DNA from: Candidatus Nomurabacteria bacterium
GTDB lineage: Bacteria > Patescibacteriota > Minisyncoccia > Phycocordibacterales > UBA9973
Assembly (NCBI GenBank): GCA_016199805.1
Contig: JACQGC010000013.1
Location: 66,327-130,326 of the forward strand
Length of the DNA: 64,000 bases
Direction of reading: 5' to 3'
Under the pieces are notes generated by a model that made no database searches, was not told the origin of the DNA, and worked only from the letters and a program-made list of their open reading frames with translations. Position 1 is the first letter of the stretch. Every line of letters starts with the position of its first letter. The translations under genes and the position numbers were made by a program. Below are positions 708-44,525 of this stretch, piece after piece.

Positions 708-1289
708 TTAATTCAAAGTTATTATTTTTTCGCCTAATCTATTTTTAAGTATGGCTTGATATTTTTCTAAATATACAATCTTTTCATTACCCACGGTATT
801 AAATAAAATTCGTGTAGAATAATCACAATCAACAAAATACTTTTGTAGTGGATTTAATTCCAAATCTCCGGTAATAATAAAGGGGTATTTAGAAACAAAA
901 TTAAAAATTGGAATATTTATTGTTTCAATGTTTTTCACAAAAATAATTCTATCCTTAACCAAAGAAGAGTTTGAAATTGCTTTAGTAAACAAGTCAGCAT
1001 CTCCGCTCTTAACAAATATTGTTTGAAACTTTGTGGCTTTCTCAAAATCGTTTTCAGATTCCAAATAAAAAACTGTTTCCGGATTTTCAATTTGTTTTAA
1101 AAATTCCTCTTTTGCCATGGGATATGCGGTAAACATAAGCAATTTTTTATCACCAACATGCAACATGGAAGCAATTACAATAGAAAGCAGAGACGCACCA
1201 GAGTGTTCTTTCCCATGTACCATCATTGGTAAATCTCCCTTTGTGAATTTTACCTCCTCTTTTGTTGAAATATTAATAATTTTCTTCAT
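708..1289 (-). CDS. hypothetical protein (193 aa), last gene of the ATPase/Cys-rich operon
   Basis: ORF only. No family recognised. 'VHGKEHSGAS' is only a weak P-loop-like stretch. Confidence 0.4.
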   Translation of the reverse strand: MKKIINISTKEEVKFTKGDLPMMVHGKEHSGASLLSIVIASMLHVGDKKLLMFTAYPMAKEEFLKQIENPETVFYLESENDFEKATKFQTIFVKSGDADLFTKAISNSSLVKDRIIFVKNIETINIPIFNFVSKYPFIITGDLELNPLQKYFVDCDYSTRILFNTVGNEKIVYLEKYQAILKNRLGEKIITLN

Positions 1290-1337
1290 AACTATTTACC
1301 ACACCATTTTTAGACGGCCGTCTAAAAATGGTGTCAT

Positions 1338-3122
1338 TTAATAAACCTCCTGCTGATAACATTTTTCGCAATAGACTATTTCTCCAGAATCTGGACTATA
1401 CCCTGTCTTAAACTCTTCCCCGCACAGGGAATCTTTGTGTATGTGAGCTACGGTATTTTTGTATACCCCAGTTTCGTCGGTGTTTCCAACACACATGCAA
1501 GATCTTTCATACAATTTTATTCCAAGGCGCAATTTTAACCTTTCTGCTGTACGGCAAACGGGACATAATATGGGCAAGGGTGTATTGGTTTTTTTATAAA
1601 AATTAAGTTCATTATTTGTAACTCTAAAAGCCTTAGTGCAACCCTGATTGCATTTTACTTTGTGTGCACATTCAAAGACTTCACCAGTTATTGAATCATT
1701 AACATTGTGAATACTGTCAGGGATATCACCTACTAAAACTGTCGGGACATAGTTTTTCGTGTCCACATCCCTCCATCTATATCCTTTTGTGGTTGCTTCC
1801 TCTTTTGTCATCGGAAAATATTCTTGAGCGATGGTTTCGTTGTAAGCCCACGGACTGAATTCTATGGGAAAAAATTCTCCATATTTATATATTCTTCCTT
1901 TCTTGTCTACGTATGGCATTTCGTTCATATGTTTTTTAATTTTTTCAACCATATCAAAATATTCTTCCTTGGCATATTGCTTATTTAAAATACAATACTG
2001 ACTCTTTCTGAGAGAGACACATCCAAATATATTTTCACAACTTCGGCAACACACTGTGTACTCGGCATTGTGCGTGTTTTCTTGAGTTTGAACAGAAAAT
2101 TTTATATTTTGAACATTGGCTCCGCTTATCATTACCTCATACAGTAATTCTGCTCCTTCGCCCCAGTTGGAATAATCATAACTATCTTTTGCGCTTGGGG
2201 TAGCTTGTAAATACTGACAATAGCGTAGATTTTCTCCTTCCCTTACCAAGAAAGAATCTCTTACATTTTTTGAGTGGGTAATATATGAACCAGTGGAATT
2301 TATATTTTTAACACCTTGAATATTTTTATTTGGAAATTTTTTCCAAAAACTTAAAGCTTTCTCCCAAGCTTTTTCAACTCCCCCTCTGGTGTAAAGTTTA
2401 TACTCTTTTAATTTCTTTTCGTAATCTTCCTTGGTGCATTGTTCATTAAAAAAACAATAATTTTTATTGCGTAAGTTAACGCAGCCAAAACAATTCATAC
2501 ACCCTTGGCAATCCTTACAGAACCAGAGATCGCTTGATTCCGAACATTGTGAAGAATAGAACACTTTATAACTTGAAGTAATCCAAAAACTTTGGTAGCA
2601 CATTTCTGCCTTATCACAATGAGACATATCTACACAATCTTTTGAGTTATCAATTCCGTTAGAATACATGGAGTCCTCAGTCCAGTTGGAATTGAATATA
2701 AGATAAGAATTCTTGGGGTCGGTGGCATTATTTACATAATCACTATTTACACCCTTAATGACATTATTGCATCGGAGTGGCACTTCTCGCCACAAATCAA
2801 GCAATTGTGGCAAAAATGGCCTGGACCAATCAATATCTTTTCCATAATCCATCGGATTCCACACATCAGAGAGCCAAATATCTCGGTCATATACTTTTAC
2901 GGGAGAATCTGGAGCATACATAGAGAAAATTTCTTTGCCGGAAAAATCGCATTTTCTTTTATAGAGCCCCCGCTCATTGCGGAAAGCCCAACGTCTTTGC
3001 GCACGACATAGCGGGCAAAACGTCGGCGGAGGAACTTTCATCTTTTCGTAAAAGTTAAAATCTTCTTGGTCTATTACAAAGTCTTGCTTGCAGTTTTGGC
3101 ATGTTTTAGTTTCTTGGTTCAT
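1338..3122 (-). CDS. cysteine-rich repeat protein, paralog A (594 aa; terminal Zn-ribbon-like CxxC pairs at both ends)
   Basis: About 60 Cys residues. Repeated C-x-[DN]-C-x2-C-F-x-C-x2-L-R-N-K-x-Y-C-x2-N-x-Q-Y-x-K-E-E-Y modules. N- and C-terminal 'FYEK..P.P..CP.CR' motifs. Clear paralog of 9179..10837. Confidence 0.6.
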   Translation of the reverse strand: MNQETKTCQNCKQDFVIDQEDFNFYEKMKVPPPTFCPLCRAQRRWAFRNERGLYKRKCDFSGKEIFSMYAPDSPVKVYDRDIWLSDVWNPMDYGKDIDWSRPFLPQLLDLWREVPLRCNNVIKGVNSDYVNNATDPKNSYLIFNSNWTEDSMYSNGIDNSKDCVDMSHCDKAEMCYQSFWITSSYKVFYSSQCSESSDLWFCKDCQGCMNCFGCVNLRNKNYCFFNEQCTKEDYEKKLKEYKLYTRGGVEKAWEKALSFWKKFPNKNIQGVKNINSTGSYITHSKNVRDSFLVREGENLRYCQYLQATPSAKDSYDYSNWGEGAELLYEVMISGANVQNIKFSVQTQENTHNAEYTVCCRSCENIFGCVSLRKSQYCILNKQYAKEEYFDMVEKIKKHMNEMPYVDKKGRIYKYGEFFPIEFSPWAYNETIAQEYFPMTKEEATTKGYRWRDVDTKNYVPTVLVGDIPDSIHNVNDSITGEVFECAHKVKCNQGCTKAFRVTNNELNFYKKTNTPLPILCPVCRTAERLKLRLGIKLYERSCMCVGNTDETGVYKNTVAHIHKDSLCGEEFKTGYSPDSGEIVYCEKCYQQEVY

Positions 3123-3129
3123 CGTGAGG

Positions 3130-5316
3130 TCATTCTAAAATTTTAAGCAAAACATCTTCCGGCACTTCATTGGTGGGCTTCAGGGGCACTGGAGCTGGAG
3201 TAGGAATTGTTTCCTCCCCTCCTTTGGACCCAGTAGGTGATTTTGCTAAATCAGGATTGCTGCCAGCAGGCGGGGTGGTGATTTCTTTTTCTGGGGTGGT
3301 AATTTTTTCCGGTACAGAAATTTTTGTGGAAATCAAATCCTTTAATTTATTCATGTCTTCGGCGCTGGCAGCGCGGTCGCCTCGGGTAAATTGGTTTGCA
3401 GGTTTTGACGAAGCAACTTCTTTAATTTTATCTTTCAAGGAATCCAGCGAAATAGGGGCCGGAATAGGCGTCGGTACGGGTGCTGGTTTCTGAAGTGGCT
3501 CAATAATTTTCGCTTTTGGTTCAGCCATAACTTTATTCAAAACTTCTTTTAGAGCGGGATTTTCTTTTGGTTTTATCTGGGGTTTAATTGCCAAGCTCGG
3601 CGTAAAAGCTTTTTTAATAGTACCTATTATTCCGGGCTTGGGCGCCAAATTCACGAGTTTTGGCATTGTAACTACCGGTCTTACCGTCACAGGCGGTTTA
3701 CCTGTGTGGTCTTCTCTTTCATGATATCTTTCACCTTCTTCAACGCGACTTCTGTCTTTTTGCTCAAATTCAATACCTAGGTCTGCCAATGGCTTGTAAA
3801 ATTTCGTCTCATCGTACTTGATTTGGTCTTGACCCCTTTTTTCCACTTTCACTTCTCCGGATTTTATTTTAGCAATACAATCTTTGCAGTAAACCGGGCG
3901 TCCGGGCTCTGGTTTGAAAGGTACCGTCTTCTCCAAGCCACACAGAGAACACAGGATTTTAAACTTCTCCAAATTTCCACTGCTTATATCGCTGTCGTTG
4001 CCGAGAGACATTCCGCTCCAATTATTTATTTCTCTTTCGACTTCTTCCTTCGTTTTACAATAAAGCTTGCGCGAGGACTGTATCACTTCTTCTTCCACTT
4101 TTTTATCACCGGACTTTACCATCGGCGGCAAGGTCTTGGCTGAAAATGGGCGTGAGGTCACTCCGTCTATCATCAATTTCAAATAAACTTTGTAGTTCGG
4201 CAGATTCACGATGTCTCCTGGCGTAAACTCCGGGTCGAATTCGCTTTCCAAAAAGTCCGCGTCGTCGGAACCTACTCGGAAGACTATCATCGTGCCCACG
4301 TTGCCGAAAACCGCATCGCGCACCGCGGAGCTCTTGTCCATCACCAGCTGAGCCGTATACTGGTGCGCCACTGTGAGATTTAAGCGGTATTTTCGGGCCT
4401 CGGACAATATGCCGGCGAAAGCATCCGTCACGAAGTTTTGGAATTCATCCACATATAAATAAAAGTCTTTGCGGTGTTCCTCGGGTATGCGCACGCGTTC
4501 CATGGCGGCCAGCTGAATCTTGGTGATAATCATTCCGCCGAGTAAACTGGAATTGTCTTCACCGATACGCCCCTTGGAAACGTTGACCAAGAAAATCTTA
4601 CCGTCGTTCATGACGTCAAAAATATTGATGGTACTTACAGATTGGCCGACGACATTGCGAATGATACTGGTGGAAAGAAACTGCCCGACTTTGTTTTGAA
4701 TAGGCGCGATGGCTTCGTTTCGGAATTTATCCTGCCAAGCCTCGTATTCGTGCACCCAAAAAGCTTTGATGACCGGGTCTTTCAAATTACCGATTATTTT
4801 CTGGCGATAATCTTTGTCCACCAATAATCTCGGAATACCCAAAAGCGTCGTACCGGGAGTGTCGAGCAGAGCCAAAATACAATTGTTTAAAATATATTCC
4901 ATTCGGGCGCTCCAGGCATTGGCCCAAATCTTGGTGAAAATACCCATCAGCCCCGAGGCTACCAGGTGTTTGTATTGCGAGTCTACCAATTCGAGGACGT
5001 TGAAACCGACATGATACTCCGCATCGGCCGGGTTGAAATAAACCACGTCTTTGATGCGGTGCGGCGGTATGGCAGAGAGCACCCCTTCTACCAGCTCGCC
5101 GTGCGGGTCTACCACGCACACACCTTCGCCGTTTTGGATGTTCTGAATAATCATGTTGAACATCAGCACGGATTTACCGGTACCGGACTTTCCGAGGATG
5201 TAAACATGCTGGCGCCTGTCTTTGCGCTTGATGCCAAAAAGCTGATTGCGGTCGCGAAAAGTCGTCAAACCCAGGTAGGTAATGTCTTTATTTATAGGTA
5301 TTTCCGGGAGTTCCAT
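3130..5316 (-). CDS. TraD/VirD4/FtsK-HerA-superfamily P-loop ATPase (soluble, no N-terminal TM); C-terminal Zn-ribbon and Pro/Lys-rich low-complexity tail
   Basis: Walker A 'YILGKSGTGKS' followed by 'VVDPHGE'; Walker B 'LYVDEFQNF'; 'VAHQYTAQL' matches the coupling-protein Q..QL motif. 'CSLCG...PFKPEPGRPVYCKDC' forms a CxxC...CxxC ribbon. The last ~250 aa are P/K/E/T-rich. Confidence 0.6.
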   Translation of the reverse strand: MELPEIPINKDITYLGLTTFRDRNQLFGIKRKDRRQHVYILGKSGTGKSVLMFNMIIQNIQNGEGVCVVDPHGELVEGVLSAIPPHRIKDVVYFNPADAEYHVGFNVLELVDSQYKHLVASGLMGIFTKIWANAWSARMEYILNNCILALLDTPGTTLLGIPRLLVDKDYRQKIIGNLKDPVIKAFWVHEYEAWQDKFRNEAIAPIQNKVGQFLSTSIIRNVVGQSVSTINIFDVMNDGKIFLVNVSKGRIGEDNSSLLGGMIITKIQLAAMERVRIPEEHRKDFYLYVDEFQNFVTDAFAGILSEARKYRLNLTVAHQYTAQLVMDKSSAVRDAVFGNVGTMIVFRVGSDDADFLESEFDPEFTPGDIVNLPNYKVYLKLMIDGVTSRPFSAKTLPPMVKSGDKKVEEEVIQSSRKLYCKTKEEVEREINNWSGMSLGNDSDISSGNLEKFKILCSLCGLEKTVPFKPEPGRPVYCKDCIAKIKSGEVKVEKRGQDQIKYDETKFYKPLADLGIEFEQKDRSRVEEGERYHEREDHTGKPPVTVRPVVTMPKLVNLAPKPGIIGTIKKAFTPSLAIKPQIKPKENPALKEVLNKVMAEPKAKIIEPLQKPAPVPTPIPAPISLDSLKDKIKEVASSKPANQFTRGDRAASAEDMNKLKDLISTKISVPEKITTPEKEITTPPAGSNPDLAKSPTGSKGGEETIPTPAPVPLKPTNEVPEDVLLKILE

Positions 5317-5355
5317 ATGTTAAAGTATACCTCCAACTGAGTTTTTTTCAAAACA

Positions 5356-5916
5356 TTATTCCTCGGGTTCGGTGCCTTCTCTTATCAACCTATTCTGCCT
5401 ATCTCTCAGCGCTTTCCAAGCTGCCAGTCTTTCTGCTTTTTGTTTTTCTTTTCTATCTTTCGCTCTTTTTTCCGCTGCCATTTTTTGCAATTCTTTTTCT
5501 TTCAAATCCTCGTTGCCGCCTTCCATTATTTCTTTTCTCGTTAGTCTTTTATATTCTGGTTTTCGTGCCAATGGAATGTTGCTTGATTCCGGAGCATCGA
5601 CCAAAGTATCTTTTATCTCGGTTGGGATAGTAGGTAAAATATCTGGGTCAGTTTTTAAATAATCCAATGCACGCATAATTCCTCCTTGAATTGACAAACT
5701 GGGAGAATTTTTGCCACTCAACCAACCCTCAACTACACTTTGAACTGTTCCGCCTGTGTCATTTTCTATAAAGCTCATTACGGCTTTTTCTCCATGTCTT
5801 TCCACAAGAGAATCAAGTTTGTTTTTATATGCAACTATCTCTGGATTCAAAGGACGCGGTTCTTCTTTCCTGCCTTTCCTTTGCGGTATTCCACCAAAAT
5901 CTCCTTTTTCGTTCAT
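5356..5916 (-). CDS. hypothetical K/E-rich protein (186 aa), tandem paralog 1
   Basis: Shares 'GGIP', 'NDTGGTVQSVVEGWL' and 'RKEIMEGGNEDLKEKE' blocks with the adjacent ORF 5925..6425. C-terminal Lys/Glu/Arg-rich predicted helix. Confidence 0.5.
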   Translation of the reverse strand: MNEKGDFGGIPQRKGRKEEPRPLNPEIVAYKNKLDSLVERHGEKAVMSFIENDTGGTVQSVVEGWLSGKNSPSLSIQGGIMRALDYLKTDPDILPTIPTEIKDTLVDAPESSNIPLARKPEYKRLTRKEIMEGGNEDLKEKELQKMAAEKRAKDRKEKQKAERLAAWKALRDRQNRLIREGTEPEE

Positions 5917-5924
5917 AAATATAT

Positions 5925-6425
5925 TTAACTTTTATTTTGCTCTATTAAAGTTTTTAACTTTTCTGTTATTTTTTGTCTTGCCCTCGCTATGTCTTTTTCT
6001 GTTTTCATTCTTAATTTTTCCCGTTCAATAGTTTTTTTTGTTATCTTTTTTAACTCTTCATCGTCTCCTTCCATTATAGCCTGCCACCTATGTTCTCTTG
6101 TCAGTAATTTTGGTTTTGGTTTAAACGGTAAAACACTTTTTATATTTGGCCGAAAATTTTCCAGGACAGAAATAACATCTCTGCAAATTCCCGGACTTGG
6201 AGTATGTTCGTTATTTAACCACCTTTCAACCACTATTGGGAGTACACCTCCTATAGTATTATTTTTTATGTATTTTATTATAAAGTCTCTGCTGTGTTTT
6301 TCTAAAAGAGAATTAAATAAACCCAAAAATTTAACCGTTTCTGGATCTGTCCGACGTTCTTGTTTAAAACTACTTCTTGGTGGTGGTATTTTAGGTATTC
6401 CTCCAATTTGTTGTCCTGGATGCAT
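5925..6425 (-). CDS. hypothetical K/E-rich protein (166 aa), tandem paralog 2
   Basis: Paralogous to 5356..5916 ('NNTIGGVLPIVVERWL', 'REHRWQAIMEGDDEELKK'). First gene after the dnaK terminator. Confidence 0.5.
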   Translation of the reverse strand: MHPGQQIGGIPKIPPPRSSFKQERRTDPETVKFLGLFNSLLEKHSRDFIIKYIKNNTIGGVLPIVVERWLNNEHTPSPGICRDVISVLENFRPNIKSVLPFKPKPKLLTREHRWQAIMEGDDEELKKITKKTIEREKLRMKTEKDIARARQKITEKLKTLIEQNKS

Positions 6426-6452
6426 GTATTTATTATACCAAAAACTCTAAGA

Positions 6453-6482
6453 ACAAAAAAGCCCCAACTGGGGCTTTTTTGA
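6453..6482 (-). terminator. rho-independent terminator hairpin after dnaK (A-tract / GC stem / T-tract; bidirectional in form)
   Basis: 'aaaaaagccccaactggggcttttttg' lies 9 nt downstream of the dnaK stop. Confidence 0.6.
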
Positions 6483-6490: not shown

Positions 6491-8404
6491 TTATGCTTTT
6501 GGTGCTTCGCCTTCCGGTGGTTTTTCTTTGAATTCTGCGTCTTTGGCATCCACGTGCTCTGCTTCTGATGCTCCGGCTGGGGCTTCTGTGCCGCCTGCTG
6601 GTGCACTTTTCGCCATCGCCTCGCCTATCTTGGACATTTCAGCAGACAGTTCTTCGGTGGCTTTCTTTATGGCTTCGCCGTCGGTACCATCTTTTACTCC
6701 TCGCACAGCTGTGATTTTTGCATTTACACTATCTTTCAGCTCGGCAGGAATTTTGGCTTCATTGTCTTTCAGCGCTTTTTCTGCGGTATAAATAATCATC
6801 TCCGCGGTGTTCTTTATATCCACAACTTCTTTTTTCTTTTTATCTTCTTCAGCATGTAGTTCCGCATCAGCCTGCATTTTCTTGATGTCTTCGTCTTTCA
6901 GGCCGGAGCTCGCTTCTATCTTTATCGATTGAGTCTTGCCGGAAGCTTTGTCTTTGGCGGCGACATTTAAAATACCATTTACATCCACATCAAAAGAAAC
7001 TTCGATTTGCGGCATACCGCGAGGTGCCGGCGGCACTCCGTCTAAAATGAATCGTCCGAGAGATTTATTGTCGGAAGCCATGGGCCTCTCCCCTTGCACG
7101 ATATGTATTTCCACAGAAGTTTGATTGTCGGCAGCCGTAGAAAATACTTGAGACTTACTGGATGGAATAGTGGTATTTCTTTCAATAAGTTTTGTCGCCA
7201 CGCCACCTAATGTTTCGATGCCCAAGGAAAGTGGAATAACATCTAGAAGCAAAACATCTCGCACGTCTCCTTGCAATACGCCAGCTTGAACCGCGGCGCC
7301 GAGAGCTACGACTTCATCCGGGTTGATAGTCAGATTTGGAGTCTTGCCAAAAACTTTTTTCACTTCTTCCACAATTTTAGGCATTCTCGTCTGCCCACCC
7401 ACCATGACTATTTCGTTTATGTCTTCAATCTTGATGCCGGAAGCCGCTAAGGCACGCTTGGTGATGTCTATGGAGCGGGACACATATTCGTCAGCTAGGG
7501 ATTCCAGTTGAGCACGGGTCATTTTGAGGAGCAAGTGTTGGGGACCCTGTGCCGTAGAGGTTATAAACGGAATATTGATTTCACTTTCCACAGCTGTAGA
7601 AAGTTCTATTTTTGCTTTTTCTGCCGCTTCATCCAGACGTTGCAAGGCCAACTTGTCTCCCCGCACATCTACACCAGAAGTCTTTTTGAATTCTTCGGCA
7701 ATCCAATTTATTATTTTGAAATCTATATCGCGGCCGCCCAAGTGACTGTCACCATCGGTGGACTTTACCTCTATGACATCGTCTCCAATTTCGAGCACGG
7801 AAACATCAAAAGTTCCGCCTCCGAAATCGTAGACAACTATCTTTTCGTTTTTCTTTTTGTTAAAACCATATGCGAGCGCCGCGGCCGTCGGCTCGTTGAT
7901 TATTCTTTTTACATCCAATCCGGCGATTTGTCCTGCGTCTTTGGTGGCCTTTCTCTGGGCATCATTAAAATATGCCGGAACGGTGATGATGGCTTCGGTG
8001 ATTTTTTCTCCGAGCTTGGTTTCCACGTCGGTTTTTATCTTGGATAAAATCATGGCCGAAATTTCTTCCGGGCGCATCCATTTGTCACCTATCATTATTT
8101 CCACTCCGCCATTTGCCCCTTTTTGTATTTTAAATGAGGAATTTTTTAAATCTTTTTGAACTTCCGGGTCGTCAAAATTGTGACCCATAAAACGCTTGAT
8201 ACCGTAGACAGTATTTTCCGGATTGGTCACTGCCTGCCTTTTGGCCAGCAAGCCGACGATTCTGTCGCCATTTTTAGCCACAGCTACGACAGATGGCGTA
8301 GTGCGGTTTCCCTCCACATTTTCAATAATTTTCGGCACACCGCCTTCAATGACAGCCACTGCCGAATTTGTTGTACCCAAATCTATACCTATTATTTTTG
8401 ACAT
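6491..8404 (-). CDS. dnaK: molecular chaperone DnaK (Hsp70)
   Basis: '[15 protein letters not shown]', '[10 protein letters not shown]', '[15 protein letters not shown]'; full-length 637 aa. Confidence 0.97.
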
Positions 8405-8516
8405 AATTAATTTTACTTATTTAGGCTTATAATCCCGACGTTTCAGTCGGGACCCGACCATAAAGCGTCGGATTTTACTAATGTTTCGCGACCACTGAAA
8501 ACTTGTATAAAGAGAG

Positions 8517-8544
8517 TATATATGATAAGTTGTAGGTATGTCAA
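8517..8544 (-). promoter_or_regulatory. near-consensus sigma70-type promoter for dnaK (TTGACA-16 nt-TATATA on the minus strand)
   Basis: Reverse complement of 8517-8544 reads 'TTGACAtacctacaacttatcaTATATA'. It lies ~105 nt upstream of the dnaK ATG and directly abuts the inverted-repeat element. Confidence 0.5.
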
Positions 8545-8615
8545 GCCCGAACACTTACTTTCAAGACGCGCCATAGGCGCATTGTACTCAATATCTTAAA
8601 AGTAAGTGTGCGGGC
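8545..8615 (+). repeat. 71-bp inverted-repeat/hairpin element, copy A (17-bp arms, 36-nt conserved loop)
   Basis: Arms 'gcccgaacacttacttt' / 'aaagtaagtgtgcgggc' pair at 16 of 17 positions. Loop 'gcgccataggcgcattgtactcaatatc'. The element ends 11 nt before the ATG of the regulator gene and is a homolog of 17236..17306. Confidence 0.7.
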
Positions 8616-8626
8616 AAGCAAAATTT

Positions 8627-9178
8627 ATGAACAATTCTTACACAAAGAAAATATTGGAGATATTGGGGAAGAAGCCAGCTGTTTCGGTGGAAGAAATACA
8701 GGAACAAATCATTTCACCCCACCTTAGTCCTCCCCTTCGCAGGGGAGGAGAAACTCGATCAAAATACGCTATCACTCGCTGCCTGAAAAATCTTAGCGAC
8801 GAAGGGCTGATAGAGCAGATTTCTTCTCCGCAAAATAAATACGCGCGTCTGACAAATGAGGGACGAAAAAAAATGCACAGTTTGGAATTGGATAACGATA
8901 CTGGCATAGTAAATACTTCTTGGGATGGACTTTGGAGAATTATTTTACTCGACCTGCCAGAGAACAGAAAAAACGAAAGAGAAAGCCTGCGTTACCTGCT
9001 TAAAAAAGCCGGTTTCGTCTGCCTGAAAAATTCCGCCTGGATATCCCCTTTCCCTTTTGAACATTTATTTATGAATATAAAAAAAGATTTAAATCTCACC
9101 ACCGAGATGATGATAATAGTCACCGAAAACATTGACCCGGAAAGTAAAAAAGTTTTGTTTGAGAATTTTGGGAAATAA
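8627..9178 (+). CDS. PaaX-like winged-helix transcriptional regulator (short form)
   Basis: N-terminal wHTH-like 'YAITRCLKNLSDEGLIEQ'. C-terminal 'WDGLWRIILLDLPENRKNERESLRYLLKKAGFVCLKNSAWISPFP' resembles PaaX_C. The ATG at 8627 is preferred over the in-stem GTG at 8606. Confidence 0.45.
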   Translation: MNNSYTKKILEILGKKPAVSVEEIQEQIISPHLSPPLRRGGETRSKYAITRCLKNLSDEGLIEQISSPQNKYARLTNEGRKKMHSLELDNDTGIVNTSWDGLWRIILLDLPENRKNERESLRYLLKKAGFVCLKNSAWISPFPFEHLFMNIKKDLNLTTEMMIIVTENIDPESKKVLFENFGK

Positions 9179-10837
9179 TTATGCGATATTTTGTTTATAA
9201 CACTCCTCACAGGCTATTTTTTTATAACCCCATTCAGGCGGATAATAGGCCATCATCTCTTTTTTACAGTAAAAACACTTATACGGGTAACCTTTTAGTA
9301 CTGCAGTCTTTCTGGCTTTTTTAAGCATTCTTAAGTCAAAATGGATTCTTGGCAAAGCAAAACCCTTCCTTTTGTGAAATTCATATTCAGCCGGAGAAAT
9401 ATTGAATCTGTATTTCGTCTCGGGGCAAATAAGAGCTTGGCTTGAAACATCAGCACCAGTATCCAAGATACTATCCGGCAACTCTAGCGAAGAAATCCCA
9501 TCTTGCGATGACAAGTCTTCTTCCGACCAGTACCCTCCTTTGCTTAAAATGAATTCCTTTTTTACTTCAGGGAAATAAACTATTGCGGTAGACAAATTAT
9601 AATCACAGATTCCCATTGAGTATGGTAAGAATTTACCGTATTCTCCCCTCTTTTCCATATCGGAAATAATTTTATTTTTCAAACTTTCATATTCTTCTTT
9701 GCTATATTCTTTATTTAAAATACAGTATTTTTTCTTTTTCAGCCCAACACACCCAAAACAATACTCGACTTCGTCGCAAATATCGAGATATTCGGAATAT
9801 CTGCCAAGAGACCATGATGAATGCTTCACATTATAGGAATAAAGCACACAACTGTTATTTCCAGAGTTTTCTACGGCGCCGAATATTCCCATCCCGTCTA
9901 TGCAATCTTTATTGCCAAGACCCCGAAGCTGGTTGCGGCAATTCTGCGAATCTTCGTAAGAAAAAACATTGATGCATTTATCGCAATTGGTCAAATAATT
10001 TCCGACAGAATTTGTGGTTTTTAGATTGAAATTTTCTCTATGTATTGCATCTTCTTTTAAAATGCTTTCAAATTCAGATTTTAGTGTTTCAATTTTTTTA
10101 TTTGAATTAAGCCCGATATTTTTCAGTTCTTTTTCGTAATCGTCTTTAGTATATTGTTGGTTGCGTATGCAATATTGTTTGTTGCGCAAGTTCCATGACA
10201 TAAAGCAGTTTTGGCAATTGCGACAATCAAAAAGAAAATACGAATCTATGCAGTCTTTACAATTTTCAGAATAATTTATGCCAAATGAGTTATGACAAGC
10301 AAAACAATCATAACAATTTTGCAAATTGAATGAATTTGCCACATCAAAGGAATCCTTGCATTCTATTACTCTATACCCATAGCTCAAATCCTCACATTTA
10401 AAAATTGACCGGGTAAGATAACAATTCTTTGAATACCAGACATCATCGCACCAATCGCAATTTTTATTGTCTTTACCGACTTGATGAGGACGCGGAACTT
10501 TTTCTTGAAGCTCTTTCAGTTGTTCAAAAAACGGCCTTGACGAATCATAGTCCTGCCCGAAAGACATCGGGTCCCAGGCATCGCTCCACCATTCGTGGGA
10601 TTTATAAATAGGATATCTGGGGCTGTTTGGTAATATCGTTATAATACTTTCACCGGATAAATCTGAAGTTCCTTTTCTAAATTTTCCAAACGGCCAAAAA
10701 GCAGAATATTGTTTCAGCCGGCAGAAAAAACATTGCTCTGGAATCTTCAAACCGACTTTTTCATACAAAAGCAAATCGCCCGAATCTATTTCAAATTCAT
10801 TTTCGCAATCTATGCATTTTTTAGTTTCAGTTTTCAT
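9179..10837 (-). CDS. cysteine-rich repeat protein, paralog B (552 aa)
   Basis: Same architecture and motifs as 1338..3122 ('NCYDCFACHNSFG', 'LRNKQYCIRNQQYTKDDYEKELK', terminal CxxC pairs). Inserted between grpE and dnaK. Confidence 0.6.
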   Translation of the reverse strand: MKTETKKCIDCENEFEIDSGDLLLYEKVGLKIPEQCFFCRLKQYSAFWPFGKFRKGTSDLSGESIITILPNSPRYPIYKSHEWWSDAWDPMSFGQDYDSSRPFFEQLKELQEKVPRPHQVGKDNKNCDWCDDVWYSKNCYLTRSIFKCEDLSYGYRVIECKDSFDVANSFNLQNCYDCFACHNSFGINYSENCKDCIDSYFLFDCRNCQNCFMSWNLRNKQYCIRNQQYTKDDYEKELKNIGLNSNKKIETLKSEFESILKEDAIHRENFNLKTTNSVGNYLTNCDKCINVFSYEDSQNCRNQLRGLGNKDCIDGMGIFGAVENSGNNSCVLYSYNVKHSSWSLGRYSEYLDICDEVEYCFGCVGLKKKKYCILNKEYSKEEYESLKNKIISDMEKRGEYGKFLPYSMGICDYNLSTAIVYFPEVKKEFILSKGGYWSEEDLSSQDGISSLELPDSILDTGADVSSQALICPETKYRFNISPAEYEFHKRKGFALPRIHFDLRMLKKARKTAVLKGYPYKCFYCKKEMMAYYPPEWGYKKIACEECYKQNIA

Positions 10838-10866: not shown

Positions 10867-11481
10867 TTATTCAACCTTTTCTTTGAATTCATATACATTG
10901 ACTCTGGCTGGGCGGATGACTCTATCGCCGAGCTTGTAACCCTTTTGGATGACGTTGGCCACGGTGTGCTCAAGTTCTTTTTTGTCTGTCTCTACCACGT
11001 CTATGGATTGATGAACATTCGGGTCAAACGGTTCGCCAACTTCACCTATCGGCTTGACCCCGTATTCCTCAAAAATGTTGTTCATCTGCGTGTAGATGTA
11101 TTCCACCCCTTTGCGCCAAGAATCATCCACCTTTGCCCAAGCTTCTTTGTTGGCAAAAGCCATATTGAAACTGTCTACCACCGTCAAAAACCGGGTAAGC
11201 ATCCTCTCCCGCAAACCCTCGGAAAAAATAGCCCTTCTCTCATCTTCTTGTTTTTTGTAATTGATAAAATCCGCCCGCTCCTTCTGCCAGCCGGTAAGAT
11301 ATTCTTCTTTTTGTTTTTGCGCCTCTTTCAAATCCGCCCGAAATTTCTTTAAAGTTTTCTTTAAATCCTCTTCTCCGTCGTCATTGAATTCAAACTCCAA
11401 AACCTCCGACTCAGCAGAGTCGTCCCGAGCAGCCTCGAGGGGTATATTCGTATCTTCTTTTTTCTCTTCCTCGTCTGCCAT
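10867..11481 (-). CDS. grpE: nucleotide exchange factor GrpE
   Basis: 'RERADFINYKKQEDER', 'VVDSFNMA', 'VIQKGYKLGDRVIRPARV'. Confidence 0.9.
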   Translation of the reverse strand: MADEEEKKEDTNIPLEAARDDSAESEVLEFEFNDDGEEDLKKTLKKFRADLKEAQKQKEEYLTGWQKERADFINYKKQEDERRAIFSEGLRERMLTRFLTVVDSFNMAFANKEAWAKVDDSWRKGVEYIYTQMNNIFEEYGVKPIGEVGEPFDPNVHQSIDVVETDKKELEHTVANVIQKGYKLGDRVIRPARVNVYEFKEKVE

Positions 11482-23283: not shown

Positions 23284-23829
23284 TTATAGTTCCATGAGCT
23301 TTTTGTAAAGCTCATAGGTCGCGCGGGCGTCGGAAAGAGCGGTGTGAGCTCGTTCGTTGTTTATGCCAAAAAGCAAGCACAACTCCCGCAGAGAAAAATG
23401 TTCGAGTTTTGGGTCATTGTGCATTTTTGCCCAAGCGATGGATACTGTGTCCAGCCGATGATAATGCATGGTATTTGATATTTTTGTTTTATTGAAAGCG
23501 TATTCCAAAAATCCGGCATCAAAAGCGACATTGTGCCCGACCATGATACAATTTTTTACTTTCTCTGAAAAAACCTTCATGGCCTCCTTTAAAGTGCCGG
23601 CAGATTCCCAATCCGTAGAATCATAATGACTTACTTTCAAAGCCACCGGGTCGGCGGTTTCTATGTGCTCCGGTTTTATTTTTAATTCAAATTCCTCAAC
23701 CACTTTGAGCGACTCCGTCGTAATCACACAGCCGATTTGAATAATCTCATTATCAAGCAGATTGAGTCCGGTGGTTTCTATATCAATAAATGCAAAATTA
23801 TGTTTTCTCATGATTGTTTTATTTTCCAA
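23284..23829 (-). CDS. DnaQ-like 3'-5' exonuclease (DEDDh family)
   Basis: Exo I 'FIDIETTGL', Exo II 'GHNVAFDAGFL', Exo III 'HTALSDARAT'. Confidence 0.8.
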   Translation of the reverse strand: MENKTIMRKHNFAFIDIETTGLNLLDNEIIQIGCVITTESLKVVEEFELKIKPEHIETADPVALKVSHYDSTDWESAGTLKEAMKVFSEKVKNCIMVGHNVAFDAGFLEYAFNKTKISNTMHYHRLDTVSIAWAKMHNDPKLEHFSLRELCLLFGINNERAHTALSDARATYELYKKLMEL

Positions 23830-24703
23830 GTAAATATTTTTTTATATTCTGATTATGCTCGGCAAAAGTTTTCGCATAGTGAATATTACCATTTTTATCA
23901 TGCAAGTAATAAAGATATGGTGAATTTTGAGGGCTAATAGCCGACTCGATAGCAAGTAAGCCCGGATTACCGATAGGATTTTTGGGCAAACCTTTTGTTT
24001 TGTAAGTCTCCGACGCCGCGTCTACCTGTAGCGGCATACCGATGGAAATTCTTTTCCACAAAATTCCGGCAATGACTGATCTGTCTGTGTCCCCTTTGGC
24101 TTCTCTTTCAATAACCGAGGCCATGGTTATAATATCTTTTTCGCTTTTACCGGACTGAACAATTACGGGAAGCAGAGGATATATTTTTTTATTAAAATTA
24201 TCGGTCATAGACTTTACCACGTCTTTGTCAGTCGTGTTGGTCAGGAAAAAATATGTATCGGGAAAAAGATACCCTTCCAAATCTTTTGTTTCCAGCAAAA
24301 ATTTCATTTTACTGAAATTTGCCAGCTTGGGAGCAGAGGCATCGGCAATCTGCTCTATATTGAAACCTTCTGGAATTGTCAGGGCTACGGGGGCCATATG
24401 GTGCTCCCCATTTGTGATACGGTAAGCCACTTGCCAGACAGGTATTTTATTTTCAAAAAAATAATTGGTGGAAATTATATGTTTTTCTCCTCTCATGGCT
24501 ATCATAAAAAATTCAAATACCACTCTCGAACGCACGATGTGCTCATTTTTCAAAAGAGCAGAAACACCGTGCAGACTCATGCCGGATTCTATGGAAATTA
24601 CCGTCTTTGGCGTAAAATCCGAAGGCGCGCTCAAAAAGAAAGAATAGAAAAATATCAAAAAAACAATCACGGAGAGCGTATAAAATATATTTTTATTCTT
24701 CAT
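23819..24703 (-). CDS. mltG: endolytic murein transglycosylase MltG (YceG-like)
   Basis: N-terminal TM, 'EGYLFPDTYF', 'MASVIEREA', 'GMPLQVDA', 'KGLPKNPIGNPG'. Confidence 0.8.
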   Translation of the reverse strand: MKNKNIFYTLSVIVFLIFFYSFFLSAPSDFTPKTVISIESGMSLHGVSALLKNEHIVRSRVVFEFFMIAMRGEKHIISTNYFFENKIPVWQVAYRITNGEHHMAPVALTIPEGFNIEQIADASAPKLANFSKMKFLLETKDLEGYLFPDTYFFLTNTTDKDVVKSMTDNFNKKIYPLLPVIVQSGKSEKDIITMASVIEREAKGDTDRSVIAGILWKRISIGMPLQVDAASETYKTKGLPKNPIGNPGLLAIESAISPQNSPYLYYLHDKNGNIHYAKTFAEHNQNIKKYLLGK

Positions 24704-24710: not shown

Positions 24711-26108
24711 TTACGTAGGTAAATTTGTTGGTGGAGAAGCTTCTTTGGATTCGATACGTTCCAAGGTTGGAACTCGCATAATCTGACCCGGGAAGTGCCA
24801 CAATGTCGCCAACTCTTCGGTGTTTAAGACGAAAGTTTCAGGATGAAAATACGCTCTGACAAAGCCGGAAAATGGCCAAGGAATTCTGTGTTGATTAAAA
24901 AGATGATGCCTCAAAGGAAGATGAAAAAATGACCGTTCGCGATATTCATTCAGCATCCTGTTGGCTAAAAACATAACAGTCTCCGCGGATGCCGGAAATA
25001 CTCCACTGTATGCATCACCCTGGGTAGAGTTGTGACGAGATAAACCATTACAGTCCGGGGACTCATATTGACGAAAAATAAGACGAATGTCTTTCCGGCG
25101 ATTGACGGTGTAAACTTCTTTTTTGGCCGCGTAGAAAACACGGATACCTGTTTCAAAACCAAGCTTGGAAACTTTGGCAATCATGGCTTTTGAGACTCTG
25201 TCCAGATATGGCGGAACACGAACTTCAATTCTGGACGATTTAAGAAGTATGCCTGTATCTTGATCCTTTCTTTGGGAAGTGTAAGGAAGCATTAATTTAT
25301 GCCACTGCTCCCTAGCCTCTTCCGCCCAATCATGTTTACCAAACCAGGTATCTTTTGTCTTATATGTTTTTTTGGAAGGTGTGATAATAATTTGCGTCCA
25401 CGCCTGCTCGCCTTTTTGTAGTGACCCAAAAAATTCCACTAACGGAGAAATCGGGTCAACTTTGAATTCTTCTTTCGGATCTTTATCCAAACCGAAATCC
25501 ACATAGGTTTTGAGCGGGTAAGCTTCCGGTTTTGATAATTTAAATTCACAACCCCAGCCGTTCCAAGCGCTCTTGGGGGAAATCTCATCCACTCCCAAAG
25601 TGTAATCCTCTACCGCTTTGACTTGCGCCTGCGGGTACTGCGCATACATTTGGGTTTCGATGAGGCTACGCACACGCGTAGGCGTGCGGATGTAAAAATG
25701 CACTTGCCCGTCTATGGATGCAATCTCCAATGAAAACCAAAACCAAACGGCACCTTGCCAAAACTCTTCTTTGCCTCCCTTCATGCTGAAATGATAAAGA
25801 GCATTGGTGATAAAAAGCTCCATGGCTTTTGGGCTGCGCAAAACTTCACGCGGCGGAACTATTTCCAGTAAAACAAAATCTATCCCGGAAATGAAATCTT
25901 GCTGAATGTAATGCATCCACATAGCCCAAGCTATGCGACCGAGAACAATTACTCCGATTACCGGCAAGGCCCCTCTGATTATGGTGTATTGTAAATTGTA
26001 AACGAAAATAACGTAGACGATAATCGCTACCAATATCCACGCCCAATATTCTCTTATTCCCTCCTCGAGATTATCCCAAAAGCCCTTAGCTTCTTTTTTC
26101 TCAGCCAT
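24711..26108 (-). CDS. hypothetical membrane protein (465 aa; two N-terminal TM helices, large cytoplasmic domain, C-terminal 'FVLNTEELATLWHFPG' motif)
   Basis: ORF plus hydrophobic segments 'WAWILVAIIVYVIFVY' and 'LPVIGVIVLGRIAWAMW'. Family not recognised. Confidence 0.4.
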   Translation of the reverse strand: MAEKKEAKGFWDNLEEGIREYWAWILVAIIVYVIFVYNLQYTIIRGALPVIGVIVLGRIAWAMWMHYIQQDFISGIDFVLLEIVPPREVLRSPKAMELFITNALYHFSMKGGKEEFWQGAVWFWFSLEIASIDGQVHFYIRTPTRVRSLIETQMYAQYPQAQVKAVEDYTLGVDEISPKSAWNGWGCEFKLSKPEAYPLKTYVDFGLDKDPKEEFKVDPISPLVEFFGSLQKGEQAWTQIIITPSKKTYKTKDTWFGKHDWAEEAREQWHKLMLPYTSQRKDQDTGILLKSSRIEVRVPPYLDRVSKAMIAKVSKLGFETGIRVFYAAKKEVYTVNRRKDIRLIFRQYESPDCNGLSRHNSTQGDAYSGVFPASAETVMFLANRMLNEYRERSFFHLPLRHHLFNQHRIPWPFSGFVRAYFHPETFVLNTEELATLWHFPGQIMRVPTLERIESKEASPPTNLPT

Positions 26109-26240: not shown

Positions 26241-27269
26241 CTATGCGAGCACGTAAAGCCCGGCTTTGTTCTTTTTGAAATATTTTGGGTTGGCTAGGTT
26301 TACCAAGATGGTGTTTTTTTTGAAATATCTTTCTTTCATGACCTTGGATACTACATCATCTTTGGTCATCGGTCCTTCTCTCTTTAAAATATCCTCGATA
26401 ACCTCGCGGGCGATACCGGTCTTATAACCCCATTCCGCCAAAGCATACATGCCTCTGCCTACCAAAACAAAACGGGAGTCTTTAATAAGCTCGTTGTGGC
26501 AAGTAGCATAGTGAGTCTTTTTGCCGAAAGTTTTAGAAATGGAATCGGCAACTTCTTTGAAATGCATAGGAGAACCATGACGTCTCATGACCAGGAAAGC
26601 ATAATCTTTCACTCCGCGGGTACGGACGTTTGGAGAAGAAGCCTTGCCCCATTCACCCAGGCCGTTCTTGGCAATGGTTTTAGACATCGACAGCCACCTC
26701 TTAGCCATCTCTTCATCTCTGTACTCTTCGGAAACATCCTTGAGTTGGTCAAAAAATCTCTTAATCATTTCTGTTTCCGGGATAAGGTCTTCATCTTTCA
26801 AGCCTCCGTAAAGTTTGCGTAAAGCATCATGAACTTTGTCGGCTATCTCGTCATCTACGCTGTAACGCGTATGGAAATGTTCATCTTCGCGATGTTTCTT
26901 GAAAGCATCGCTTAATACCAAAAAGAAATGAATATGGTTTTGAGTGGTTTTATCTTTTGAAATATAAGGCAACAGTTCGTGTTCGGCCACAACCGAACCC
27001 AATTTGTGCATCAATGATTTTAATTCGTTGAAGACCGCTTGTTCATTTTTATAAGCATCGGATTTTTTTATAAGACTGATAGCCGCATCTTCAACCTGAC
27101 GAACTCTTTCGCGTGTAATGTTGTATTTCTTGCCGATTTCTTCCAAAGTTTTCCTTTCTCCTAGCCCGGAGAGACCGAAGCGGTTCATGATCACATCCGT
27201 GGCTCGGGGAGACAAATTTGAAGTTATTTTTTTGGTAACTTTTTTTGGTTTGAAAGATATTGTTGTCAT
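26241..27269 (-). CDS. sigma-70 region-4 HTH + C-terminal HARE-HTH domain protein
   Basis: 'TLEEIGKKYNITRERVRQVEDAAISLIKK' is a sigma70 r4-type HTH. 'MHFKEVADSISKTFGKKTHYATCHNELIKDSRFVLVGRGMYALAEWGY' matches the HARE-HTH pattern. Confidence 0.5.
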   Translation of the reverse strand: MTTISFKPKKVTKKITSNLSPRATDVIMNRFGLSGLGERKTLEEIGKKYNITRERVRQVEDAAISLIKKSDAYKNEQAVFNELKSLMHKLGSVVAEHELLPYISKDKTTQNHIHFFLVLSDAFKKHREDEHFHTRYSVDDEIADKVHDALRKLYGGLKDEDLIPETEMIKRFFDQLKDVSEEYRDEEMAKRWLSMSKTIAKNGLGEWGKASSPNVRTRGVKDYAFLVMRRHGSPMHFKEVADSISKTFGKKTHYATCHNELIKDSRFVLVGRGMYALAEWGYKTGIAREVIEDILKREGPMTKDDVVSKVMKERYFKKNTILVNLANPKYFKKNKAGLYVLA

Positions 27270-27315: not shown

Positions 27316-29130
27316 TTATCTCTTCGCTCTGGCCCGGTCAATTTCCGTTAAATATTTTTTGCGAAGCCGAACCGATTTCGGAGTGACTTCAAGATACTCA
27401 TCGTGATTCATGACCTCCAACCCCCTTTCAATACTCAAAGTAAAAATTGGGTTTAAGGTTATGGCTTCGTCCGTACCGGAAGCGCGCATGTTGGTAAGTT
27501 GTTTTCCTTTTGTGGGGTTCACTGCCATATCGTCCCCTTTCAAAACATTACCGACAACCATGCCTTCGTAAACTTCCGTACCATGACCTACATACAATAT
27601 ACCACGTTCTTGTAAATTTGCAAGTGAAAAGGCCACTGCCTTGCCGGCCACCATGGAAGTCATGGAACCATACTCACGCTTTTTGATAACTCCGGCATAC
27701 TCTCCAAAACCGGTAACTCTGGAAGACATTATGCCTTCCCCTTTGGTATCGATGATAAATTCTCCGCGATATCCCAAAAGTCCCCGGGTAGGTATATCGA
27801 AAACCACCCTTGCAATTCCTTCCTTTTCTACCATGTCTTTCATGATACCGCGTCTTTTTCCGATTTTCTCAATCACAGACCCGGAGAATTCCATCGGCAC
27901 ATCTATCACCAGTTCTTCGTAAGGCTCGGTTTTGATTCCGTCTTTTTCCTTAATGATAACTTCGGGCTGTGAGACCTGCATTTCAAATCCTTCGCGGCGC
28001 ATATTTTCGAGTAAAATGGCTATGTGCAATTCCCCACGTCCGTATACTTTGAAAAAAGATGGTCCTGATTTATCTACTCCTTGGTCCGGAGAAAAATCAA
28101 CTTTTAGTCCGACATTTATTTCGAGTTCTTTTTCCAACCTTTCTTTGATTTGCCTGGAAGTGACAAACTTCCCTTCCTTGCCGGCAAAAGGAGAATCGTT
28201 AACCAAAAAATTCAGCGACAATGTCGGCTCGTCTATGGCAATGTGTGGCAACGGCTCCACCGATTCATCTTCACATAATGTCTCCCCGATATAAATATCA
28301 GGAATTCCCGCCAAGAGCACAATGTCGCCAGAACTGGCTTCTTGTATTTCTTTTCTACTAATACCTTCAAACGAAAACAATTTCGTAATTTTTCCCTTAC
28401 GTGTTCCATCTTGACCTTCAATATTGCCTTTCACGAAAATCTGAGTGCCTGAATTCATTTTTCCGGAATAAATTCGTGCTACTGCCATTCTGCCCAAAAA
28501 ATTATCATAACCCAAGTTGAAGACTTGGGCGGACATTTTTTCATTTTCATTTTTGGAAGCCGGTAAAACTTTTTCCAAAATCAAATCTAGGAGAGGAGAA
28601 AGATCTGTGGAAGAGTCACCTAGGTGCCGGAAGGCCTTTCCTTCGCGCCCGATAGCATAAATAGTTTCAAAATTTGCCTGTTCTTCGTTGGCGCCCAATT
28701 CAAAAAATAAACCGAGGACTTCTTCGTGCACCCGGTGCGGGTCTGAAGCCGGCTTGTCTATCTTATTTATAACCACGATTGGCTTCAATCCCAATTCCAG
28801 AGATTTCTTTAAAACGAATCTAGTTTGCGGCATAGGCCCTTCTACGGCATCCACCAACAGAAGCACGGAATCGATGGCTCGCAAAACGCGTTCCACTTCG
28901 GAGCCAAAATCCGCGTGGCCGGGAGTGTCCACAATGTTTATTTTTGTATTTTTGTAAACGATTGAAGTATTTTTGGAATAAATAGTTATGCCGCGTTCCT
29001 TTTCCAGGTCGTTTGAATCCATGGATACTCCCTCGTCCTGCAATCCCCCATTTTGCTTCATTAAAGCATCGGTCAAGGTTGTCTTGCCGTGGTCCACGTG
29101 TGCTATTATCGCTATGTTTCTGATTTCCAT
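27316..29130 (-). CDS. typA: translational GTPase TypA/BipA
   Basis: '[22 protein letters not shown]', '[16 protein letters not shown]'; 604 aa with the characteristic C-terminal domain. Confidence 0.95.
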
Positions 29131-43973: not shown

Positions 43974-43977
43974 ATTT

Positions 43978-44415: not shown

Positions 44416-44525
44416 CCGTCCTTTAAGCGCGACGCAATTAACGAACTTATAATAAATGCGACCTAATAATAATTAAACTAATAATGTTACTTAATTATAC
44501 CCCTTGCCCAAATATGAAGCAAATT

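Follow-up and report, generated by a model that had tools for sequence, protein, structure and literature searches.

A run of five closely spaced minus-strand genes follows dnaK near the left end of the 64,000-nucleotide stretch analysed here (hereafter the window; contig JACQGC010000013.1 of a Candidatus Nomurabacteria assembly), and it raises the question of whether these genes act together, as their arrangement suggests, and what is moved by the large ATPase that lies in their midst. An earlier note on this DNA proposed either a novel ATPase-driven translocation or defence-like module, or the remnant of a DNA-uptake apparatus whose other parts are elsewhere. The explanation that we consider likely is that the stretch is the grpE-dnaK-...-dnaJ-rsmE cluster of Nomurabacteria with insertions, that the conserved item within it is a membrane motor split into an anchor and an ATPase encoded 19 kb apart, and that the other four genes are passengers. 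The features on which this explanation turns are the following.

3130-5316, minus strand: long ATPase of 728 amino acids, resembling type IV coupling proteins (T4CPs); matched by Pfam PF10412, PF01935, PF02534, PF12696 and PF23477, by TrwB in the PDB and by phrog_5156
4024-5241, minus strand: P-loop domain of the ATPase, about residues 26-431, from the domain matches
3865-3966, minus strand: CxxC-x17-CxxC zinc ribbon of the ATPase, residues 451-484 (PF23477, TIGR04272)
3133-3864, minus strand: low-complexity tail of the ATPase, 244 residues rich in P, K, E and T, from composition
24711-26108, minus strand: candidate membrane anchor of the ATPase, 465 amino acids, annotated as 'hypothetical'; precomputed Pfam match PF26449, and matched by about 45 anchors from related loci
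26241-27269, minus strand: protein of 342 amino acids with sigma-70 region 4 (PF04545, 3.6e-12) and HARE-HTH (PF05066, 5.2e-11) domains, also matching the RpoD C-terminus and RNA polymerase delta-like proteins

The ATPase and its probable membrane anchor

The P-loop domain carries all four of the motifs that had been read from its translation: Walker A GKSGTGKS at residue 42, VVDPHGE at residue 68, Walker B LYVDEFQNF at residue 287, and VAHQYTAQL at residue 316. The proposed assignment to the TraD/VirD4 coupling-protein type is borne out by matches to TrwB_AAD_bind (PF10412, 40.4 bits against a cut-off of 20.5, aligned over residues 32-349), T4SS-DNA_transf (PF02534, 28.1 against 20.1), TraG-D_C (PF12696, 24.4 against 22) and, at the level of the superfamily, DUF87/HerA (PF01935, 31.8 against 23.2), together with TrwB (1e9r/1gl6, E 2e-5), which is the only solved relative recovered by sequence from the PDB. 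These are the four coupling-protein or HerA models found above cut-off in the profile searches that the earlier note had suggested; FtsK_SpoIIIE, which it had also named, is absent from the 14 Pfam families listed for the ATPase up to E 0.1. The HerA models of PADLOC match locally at the P-loop only. A place within the coupling-protein branch of the FtsK-HerA superfamily is supported at the domain level, and, judged by sequence, the ATPase fits no curated equivalog. The cut-offs of the TraD/VirD4-like NCBIfam models are not reached (TIGR03743, 48.8 against 366 bits; NF045973, 44.8 against 250; TIGR02759, 24.6 against 521), and the VirB4 models give only partial and weak matches (NF045971, E 1.5e-5 over residues 268-358 with a cut-off of 325 bits; NF045975, 22 against 590 bits).

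The ATPase lacks an N-terminal membrane anchor, as had been proposed, and no transmembrane (TM) segment is present anywhere in the polypeptide, with no 19-residue window exceeding a Kyte-Doolittle hydropathy of 1.6. The predicted zinc ribbon has its cysteines in a 2-17-2 spacing (C456-x2-C459-x17-C477-x2-C480) and scores above both curated cut-offs (PF23477 zf_Tbcl_2, 46.4 bits against 27; TIGR04272, 47.8 bits against 36); the CxxC-x17-CxxC domain binds zinc in small proteins of Methanosarcina (PMC12704099). The tail, put at about 250 residues in the earlier note, contains 33 lysines, 32 prolines, 24 glutamates and 17 threonines in its 244 residues. A GGAGG sequence lies 14 nucleotides upstream of the ATPase start, and several other genes are without an obvious Shine-Dalgarno sequence.

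The neighbourhoods of related ATPases were compared by clustering the open reading frames (ORFs) of 80 genome loci, which are the best 80 of at least 599 confirmed ATPase matches (one genome per species scanned) and share 49-91% identity with the window ATPase. Related loci are given L-numbers, with L001-L009 being the nine closest genomes, L081, L085 and L086 the closest metagenome contigs, and L087-L102 viral or mobile contigs from IMG/VR. In 52 of the 80 loci a protein of 400-530 residues, with two N-terminal TM helices and no P-loop, is encoded directly upstream of the ATPase, and seven more have it in the same gene cluster (59 of 80). The genes are usually arranged as secD-secF-sigma70r4/HARE-HTH-anchor-ATPase, often with pgk and recJ next, and the sigma70r4/HARE-HTH gene precedes the anchor in most loci. 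The counterpart in the window is the 465-residue protein, which is recovered by about 45 of the locus anchors, down to E 1e-74, lies directly downstream of the sigma70r4/HARE-HTH gene, and is 100% identical to 'hypothetical protein HY311_03285' of a Candidatus Nomurabacteria metagenome-assembled genome. The earlier suggestion that other parts lie elsewhere is thus upheld to this extent, that the membrane anchor is a separate gene at 24711-26108. Ordinary housekeeping genes surround it, all on the minus strand: YceG/MltG (23819-24703) directly downstream, BipA/TypA (27316-29130), and ClpB (33346-36012).

A second line of evidence comes from phrog_5156, a profile of 824 positions. The window ATPase matches its positions 401-805 (E 4e-61), the window anchor matches positions 79-191 (E 8e-7), and an 856-residue anchor-ATPase fusion in a related locus (L027:141-2711) matches positions 66-808 (E 2e-88). 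That the protein is split, and that its halves have come to lie 19 kb apart in this lineage, would account for the soluble nature of the ATPase.

An AlphaFold2 model of the anchor built with 34 homologues (pLDDT 66, pTM 0.62) contains two long TM helices, at residues 10-36 and 40-72, followed by an alpha/beta domain. Its fold matches TrwK/VirB4 by two methods, and with Foldseek nine TrwK chains are the top matches (probability 0.95-1.0), followed by EccE3. Because the anchor has no Walker motifs, and is N-terminal to the ATPase in the fusions, we infer that it is the N-terminal domain of VirB4 that it resembles; the anchor would then consist of a VirB3-like TM hairpin and a VirB4-N-terminal-domain-like module, and the pair would thus combine a VirB4-like architecture with a T4CP-like ATPase sequence.

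These comparisons suggest how the pair may work. The 728-residue protein would be the 'long' paralogue of a phylum-wide orphan VirD4-like ATPase and the cytoplasmic motor half of a two-gene protein, of which the 465-residue protein, with its two TM helices and VirB4-N-terminal-domain-like fold, would be the partner half. The P-loop domain would form a TrwB/VirB4-type hexamer, the anchor would dock this hexamer at the cytoplasmic face of the membrane, and ATP would drive the movement of a polymer there, most likely nucleic acid but possibly unfolded protein. The zinc ribbon and the disordered P/K/E/T-rich tail may act as an arm that recruits substrates or adaptors, analogous to the C-terminal extensions of TraD-type proteins. 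A membrane-docked hexameric translocase is, on this evidence, the putative function of the pair.

Distribution and genomic context

The ATPase family is already annotated and counted in the literature, and its existence is not new. Quiñonero-Coronel et al. (PMC12102498) report 5,713 VirD4-like homologues in 2,918 of 3,035 Patescibacteria genomes (about 96%), describe a separate bona fide VirB4 clade in the phylum, and write that exaptation of the orphan VirD4-like proteins 'cannot be ruled out'. What we have not found described, and take to be new, are the split architecture, the VirB4-like anchor, the triad of sigma-like, anchor and ATPase genes, the move into the dnaK cluster, and the Cys-rich zinc-ribbon/solenoid family considered below.

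A protein search with the window ATPase returned at least 8000 homologues, and the best 120 of these are 88-97% identical to it over residues 1-490; the best homologues are from Nomurabacteria and Paceibacterota and are named either 'type IV secretion system DNA-binding domain-containing protein' or 'CxxC-x17-CxxC domain-containing protein'. The best 80 genome matches cover Nomurabacteria, Wolfe-, Lipton-, Colwell-, Staskawicz-, Doudna-, Morani-, Uhr-, Portnoy-, Buchanan-, Falkow-, Niyogi- and Nealsonbacteria. Identity over L001-L009 is 80-91% for the ATPase core and 80-90% for DnaK, and the ATPase is neither a mobile nor a defence gene but a core gene that evolves slowly and is inherited vertically. 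A single-protein query found no close relatives on viral contigs; a profile query identified ATPase relatives of 25-53% identity on 16 viral or mobile contigs (L087-L102), on which the anchor family is absent by sequence, and the ATPase family therefore circulates on mobile elements too. Some of these relatives are soluble (396-582 residues) and others have an N-terminal extension of about 300 residues. Some of the 16 contigs may be misclassified patescibacterial DNA.

A second, short ATPase paralogue of about 500 residues (about 45% identity), with a K/E-rich tail and no zinc ribbon, is encoded in each of the nine closest genomes and three closest metagenome contigs, always directly upstream of dnaJ (e.g. 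L081:6672-8216). Other lineages have a second paralogue that carries its own anchor domain as a fusion (L027:141-2711; L075).

The genomic setting of the long ATPase in the window is defined by the following features.

6491-8404, minus strand: dnaK, from HSP70 homology
6455-6480, minus strand: hairpin resembling an intrinsic terminator after dnaK, A6-GCCCC-AGTT-GGGGC-T6, from sequence reading
10867-11481, minus strand: grpE (GrpE Pfam match, 1.3e-38)

From the same twelve loci a Nomurabacteria-type gene order can be read, in which grpE is followed by zero to three Cys-rich genes, a PaaX-like gene on the opposite strand, dnaK, small ORFs and the long ATPase, and then by zero to two Cys-rich genes, rsmE (on the opposite strand), a Cys-rich gene, the short ATPase paralogue and dnaJ. 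Both ATPase paralogues lie between dnaK and dnaJ in all twelve. The window keeps this order up to rsmE at its left edge, and the short paralogue and dnaJ presumably lie just beyond. Since the dnaK-dnaJ position is confined to one lineage, the ATPase pair has been relocated into the grpE-dnaK-dnaJ cluster in the Nomurabacteria-type lineage only. Both secDF...recJ and grpE-dnaK-dnaJ...rsmE are ancestral gene orders, known also from Firmicutes, and the secDF linkage was set aside as a functional clue and is treated here as inherited synteny. We also considered from the dnaK/dnaJ context that the ATPase might substitute for a ClpB-like disaggregase, and rejected this as the window encodes a normal ClpB and the dnaK linkage is found in one lineage only.

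Several other observations concern the surroundings of dnaK. Between dnaK and the ATPase in L085 there is a 65-residue ORF (L085:7878-8063) that is 77% identical to the first 60 residues of the ATPase; it is a duplication remnant, and the dnaK-ATPase intergenic zone is recombinationally active. A gene for a PaaX_M/MarR-like winged-helix protein (8606-9178, plus strand) is divergent from dnaK and is conserved at this position in the nine closest genomes; in Firmicutes the corresponding position is occupied by HrcA. The intergenic region between dnaK and the PaaX-like gene (8404-8620) contains a 22-nucleotide inverted repeat (8545-8566 and 8594-8615, 91% complementary) and a near-consensus promoter, TTGACA-18-TATACT, at 8544-8515, and no CIRCE heat-shock operator was found in the window. 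The PaaX-like protein and the inverted repeat may be a replacement heat-shock regulator with its operator.

The probable passenger genes

The genes that accompany the ATPase, and the elements between them, are as follows.

5925-6425, minus strand: p166, 166 amino acids, tandem paralogue of p186; extended -10 element upstream
5356-5916, minus strand: p186, 186 amino acids, conserved N-terminal domain of about 95 residues and a K/E-rich tail; paralogue of p166
1338-3122, minus strand: Cys-rich protein, 594 amino acids with 33 cysteines; N-terminal zinc ribbon, beta-solenoid core, second ribbon FY.K...P.P..CP.CR and C-terminal C-x17-CxxC ribbon
1307-1328, no strand: perfect 22-nucleotide palindrome TTTTTAGACGGCCGTCTAAAAA with T and A runs on either side, separating the Cys-rich gene from the ORFan, from sequence reading
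708-1289, minus strand: ORFan, 193 amino acids, 29% G+C, no homologue in the databases and loci searched
9179-10837, minus strand: second Cys-rich paralogue, 552 amino acids with 33 cysteines, between grpE and the PaaX-like gene, from homology to the 594-residue protein

The five minus-strand ORFs are located exactly where the earlier note placed them; the gaps between them, which it gave as 8-44 bp, measure 48, 7, 39 and 8 bp, with 65 bp to dnaK. It was also correct in starting the unit right after the dnaK terminator, with a hairpin and T-run after the dnaK stop codon and an extended -10 element (TGGTATAAT, 6432-6440) ahead of p166. Only 6 nucleotides separate this element from the p166 ATG, and a Shine-Dalgarno sequence cannot be seen, so that the p166 mRNA probably has no leader or a very short one.

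The two small proteins are indeed paralogues (31% identity, E 3e-16). No homologue of either was found in the 80 genome loci by phmmer up to E 1, and L085 and L086 each have one gene at the corresponding position, whose product is only 28-31% identical, against 97% and 86% for DnaK and 94-95% for the ATPase core. With a profile built from both N-terminal domains, only 47 representative clusters were recovered among 1.84 billion proteins; members have the N-terminal domain of about 95 residues, a variable linker and often a C-terminal 'KLRKEGKI', and there is no Pfam match. The p186 and p166 proteins are narrowly distributed and very fast-evolving. A motif, VV..WL.G...PS..I, is suggestive of Xre-type helix-turn-helix (HTH) proteins, and with no Pfam HTH match for 34 family members this was left as a guess.

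The 193-residue ORFan has no match in Pfam, NCBIfam, PADLOC, PHROGs, 86 related loci or PDB sequences, and it is not present in L081, L085 or L086, where rsmE follows directly. The palindrome that separates it from the Cys-rich gene looks like a bidirectional terminator, and this, together with its G+C content of 29% as against 46% for the ATPase, indicates that the ORFan is probably outside the ATPase unit and a separate recent insertion. A separate assembly from the same population breaks off 33 bp past the Cys-rich gene. The possibility that the ORFan is a degenerate duplicate of the ATPase P-loop was tried, aligning VHGKEHSGAS on ILGKSGTGKS, and rejected (hhalign probability 0.1%, E 0.59; Smith-Waterman z = 0.5 against 1000 shuffles).

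The 594-residue Cys-rich protein was credited with about 60 cysteines, of which 33 are counted; the repeated units described for it exist in type, but there are two copies of 'C..C..CFGC..LR.K.YC..N.QY.KEEY' (about residues 202-235 and 358-388) rather than a long array. The near-duplicate ribbons reported near both termini are present, as FYEKMKVPPPTFCPLCR at residues 24-40 and FYKKTNTPLPILCPVCR at residues 508-524, and the final 26 residues match, below threshold, the C-x17-CxxC type of ribbon found in the ATPase. A confident structural model (pLDDT 81.8, pTM 0.82) predicts ends that resemble zinc ribbons, helical segments, and short strands stacked into a core. About 7800 homologues were found, all 'hypothetical', which are 55-89% identical over 99-100% of the length; their alignment has 57 invariant columns, including C8, C11, C36, C39, C485, C542, C567, C585 and C588, and some family members carry PF13451 or PF23477. 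Among the related loci compared, the family is confined to Paceibacteria-type loci and occurs in several copies: as many as six lie in tandem in L014, and the window has two. The second of these is 30% identical to the 594-residue protein over its full length (E 7e-70) and has orthologues at the same position in L002, L004, L007, L085 and L086. Homologues of the 594-residue protein at 74%, 60% and 55% identity adjoin MreB/HolB, TrmB regulators and pseudouridine synthase/L19, with no ATPase within 8 kb. In L113, a distant relative, a diversity-generating-retroelement pair (bAvd and reverse transcriptase; L113:14654-16073) lies about 5 kb from tandem Cys-rich genes, and this is probably incidental.

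Resemblance to known systems and competing explanations

The pair shares with the T4CPs TrwB, TraD and VirD4, which provide its best Pfam, NCBIfam and PDB matches, a P-loop domain with matching Walker A/B context, membrane attachment through two N-terminal TM helices, and a C-terminal extension past the ATPase domain. It differs from them in that the TM part is a separate gene, that the anchor adds a predicted VirB4-like domain of about 390 residues missing from T4CPs, and that the ATPase has a CxxC-x17-CxxC ribbon and a long disordered tail. The ATPase also scores far below the TraD/VirD4 equivalog cut-offs (e.g. TIGR03743, above), is a vertically inherited and highly conserved chromosomal gene rather than a mobile-element gene, and has no linkage to a type IV secretion system (T4SS) or, though no search aimed at relaxases was made, to a relaxase, its neighbours in the 80 loci being secDF, the sigma-like gene, pgk and recJ, or dnaK/dnaJ. 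VirB4 (TrwK) and TrsD-like proteins resemble the fused homologues in having a (TM) N-terminal domain followed by a P-loop C-terminal domain, and VirB4 is tethered by a two-helix partner, VirB3, to which it is sometimes fused; however, the VirB4 match of the ATPase is limited to 90 residues around Walker B (NF045971), and the pair is not adjacent to VirB3, VirB6 or VirB8 genes. The phage and mobile-element profile phrog_5156 has anchor and ATPase in a single polypeptide, but belongs to viral and mobile contigs and lacks zinc ribbon and tail. EccE of the mycobacterial ESX (type VII) systems has no sequence similarity to the anchor, and no other ESX components are present. The ATPase ribbon scores as a member of the CxxC-x17-CxxC proteins (TIGR04272, PF23477), and a weaker copy ends the Cys-rich protein; in Methanosarcina these are small stand-alone proteins, whereas the ribbons in the window are extensions of a translocase ATPase and of a beta-solenoid protein.

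The T4CP resemblance raises the possibility that anchor and ATPase are the coupling protein of a patescibacterial T4SS acting in trans, with VirB4, VirB3, VirB6 and VirB2 encoded elsewhere, the ribbon and tail recruiting substrates, and the pilins of the window belonging to the same machine:

43635-46371, minus strand: six tandem VirB2-like T4SS pilin genes, five matching PF18895 and the sixth sharing the motif

These genes are the six-gene pilin-like array that the earlier note put forward as a candidate partner in trans, a speculative pairing, and they are VirB2-like, 22-60% identical to each other, with one encoding a double-domain protein of 235 residues; their neighbours are genes for a solute-binding protein and a methyltransferase and gyrA, with no adjacent virB4, and VirB2 arrays have been described for Patescibacteria (PMC12102498). 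Beyond the best database matches, such a reading is in keeping with the frequent location of T4CP genes away from virB4 (PMC12102498), and it would fill a gap in the T4SS cluster of Southlakia, which has no recognisable coupling protein (PMC10633639, Wang et al.). We nevertheless think it unlikely. Only 148 of the 5,713 homologues are near virB4, the family is found in more genomes than VirB4 (2,918 against 2,417), and the Southlakia epibionticum homologue is reported to be non-essential although the T4SS is essential, which argues against an obligatory T4SS role (PMC12102498). A VirB2-like pilin gene is near the ATPase in none of the 80 loci, conservation at the level of DnaK and residence in housekeeping operons are atypical of T4SS parts, and the anchor appears to resemble VirB4 rather than the TM domain of a T4CP. 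The same conservation and residence, along with universal distribution, membership of the FtsK-HerA superfamily (the DUF87 match) and a DNA-binding sigma70r4/HARE-HTH gene next to the anchor, could be taken to indicate a T4SS-independent housekeeping DNA motor, a divergent FtsK/SpoIIIE- or HerA-like protein that clears or segregates the chromosome at the membrane or septum; with FtsK_SpoIIIE missing from the Pfam families listed up to E 0.1, relatives on phage and mobile contigs that fit transfer rather than segregation, and the non-essential Southlakia homologue (PMC12102498), we regard this as very improbable.

Least credible of all is a single new module for ATPase-driven translocation or for defence, made up of all five genes, with the small K/E-rich and Cys-rich proteins serving the ATPase as its dedicated partners or its substrates. 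In favour of this, the genes run in one direction with little space between them, have a promoter-like element of their own after the dnaK terminator, and have the C-x17-CxxC type of ribbon in common to the ATPase and the Cys-rich protein; Cys-rich genes also lie between anchor and ATPases in L022, L024 and L025 and between ATPase paralogues in L002-L007, and show a weak local enrichment. The earlier note had itself named failure of the gene set to co-occur as a sign of chance juxtaposition, and the set does not co-occur in the 80 loci or the closest metagenome contigs: the small proteins occur in very close relatives only, at about 30% identity, the ORFan is unique, the ATPase has no Cys-rich neighbour in L001, L008, L009, L086 and all distant lineages, and Cys-rich homologues at 55-74% identity are found in unrelated contexts. 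These passengers vary even among the closest relatives, the gene neighbourhoods largely refute a single five-gene module, and the 'operon' is a lineage-specific accident of gene order. The defence role fares no better. A PADLOC match to mad8 (E 2e-14) is of the HerA type and stands alone, with the other five proteins having no PADLOC match and no other MADS component found, and an ATPase that is near-universal, vertically conserved and slow to evolve is the reverse of what is expected of a defence gene.

Several points weigh against the split membrane motor that we favour. The model of the anchor is only moderately confident (pLDDT 66), and a PDB-sequence profile search and NCBIfam and Pfam scans find nothing that links the anchor by sequence to VirB4, TrsD or EccE; the structure comparisons do not report which part of TrwK is aligned, and the N-terminal assignment is our reading. 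The substrate, nucleic acid or unfolded protein, is purely what we infer. The neighbouring secDF, pgk, recJ and dnaK genes seem to be there through ancestral housekeeping synteny and not as functional partners, and the non-essential Southlakia homologue (PMC12102498) counts here too, where the phenotype of a single loss could be masked by the two paralogues per genome. Lastly, Cys-rich genes occupy 17% of the slots within two genes of the ATPase or anchor and 8% of those further away in L001-L025 (odds ratio 2.4, p 0.016), which is weak evidence as the loci are related and the genes tandem, and thus non-independent; a functional tie between the Cys-rich family and the ATPase is possible.

A bolder extension of the split motor, which we put forward as quite improbable, is that the pair represents a third, phylum-specific branch of VirB4/VirD4 turned into a housekeeping nucleic-acid import motor, which would pull host RNA or DNA inward, alone or at the base of a VirB2-pilus T4SS, with ribbon and tail gripping the polymer and the Cys-rich proteins as accessory substrate-handling factors or cargo. 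Patescibacteria make up a large share of bacterial diversity, cannot make their own nucleotides and take macromolecules from hosts. If true, an import motor would supply the 'alternative means of nucleotide acquisition' discussed for Saccharibacteria (PMC11665869), as well as the RNA-uptake route proposed in a 2026 preprint (10.64898/2026.06.21.733656).

The tidy five-gene 'operon' is removed as a false lead. The ATPase, present in about 96% of genomes, conserved like DnaK, and a member of a family of DNA and protein pumps with no assigned role, is a strong and cheap target for Saccharibacteria genetics. A split VirB4-like machine with a 'hypothetical' anchor would show which genes to delete jointly, namely the anchor and the long and short paralogues, and which pair to co-express.

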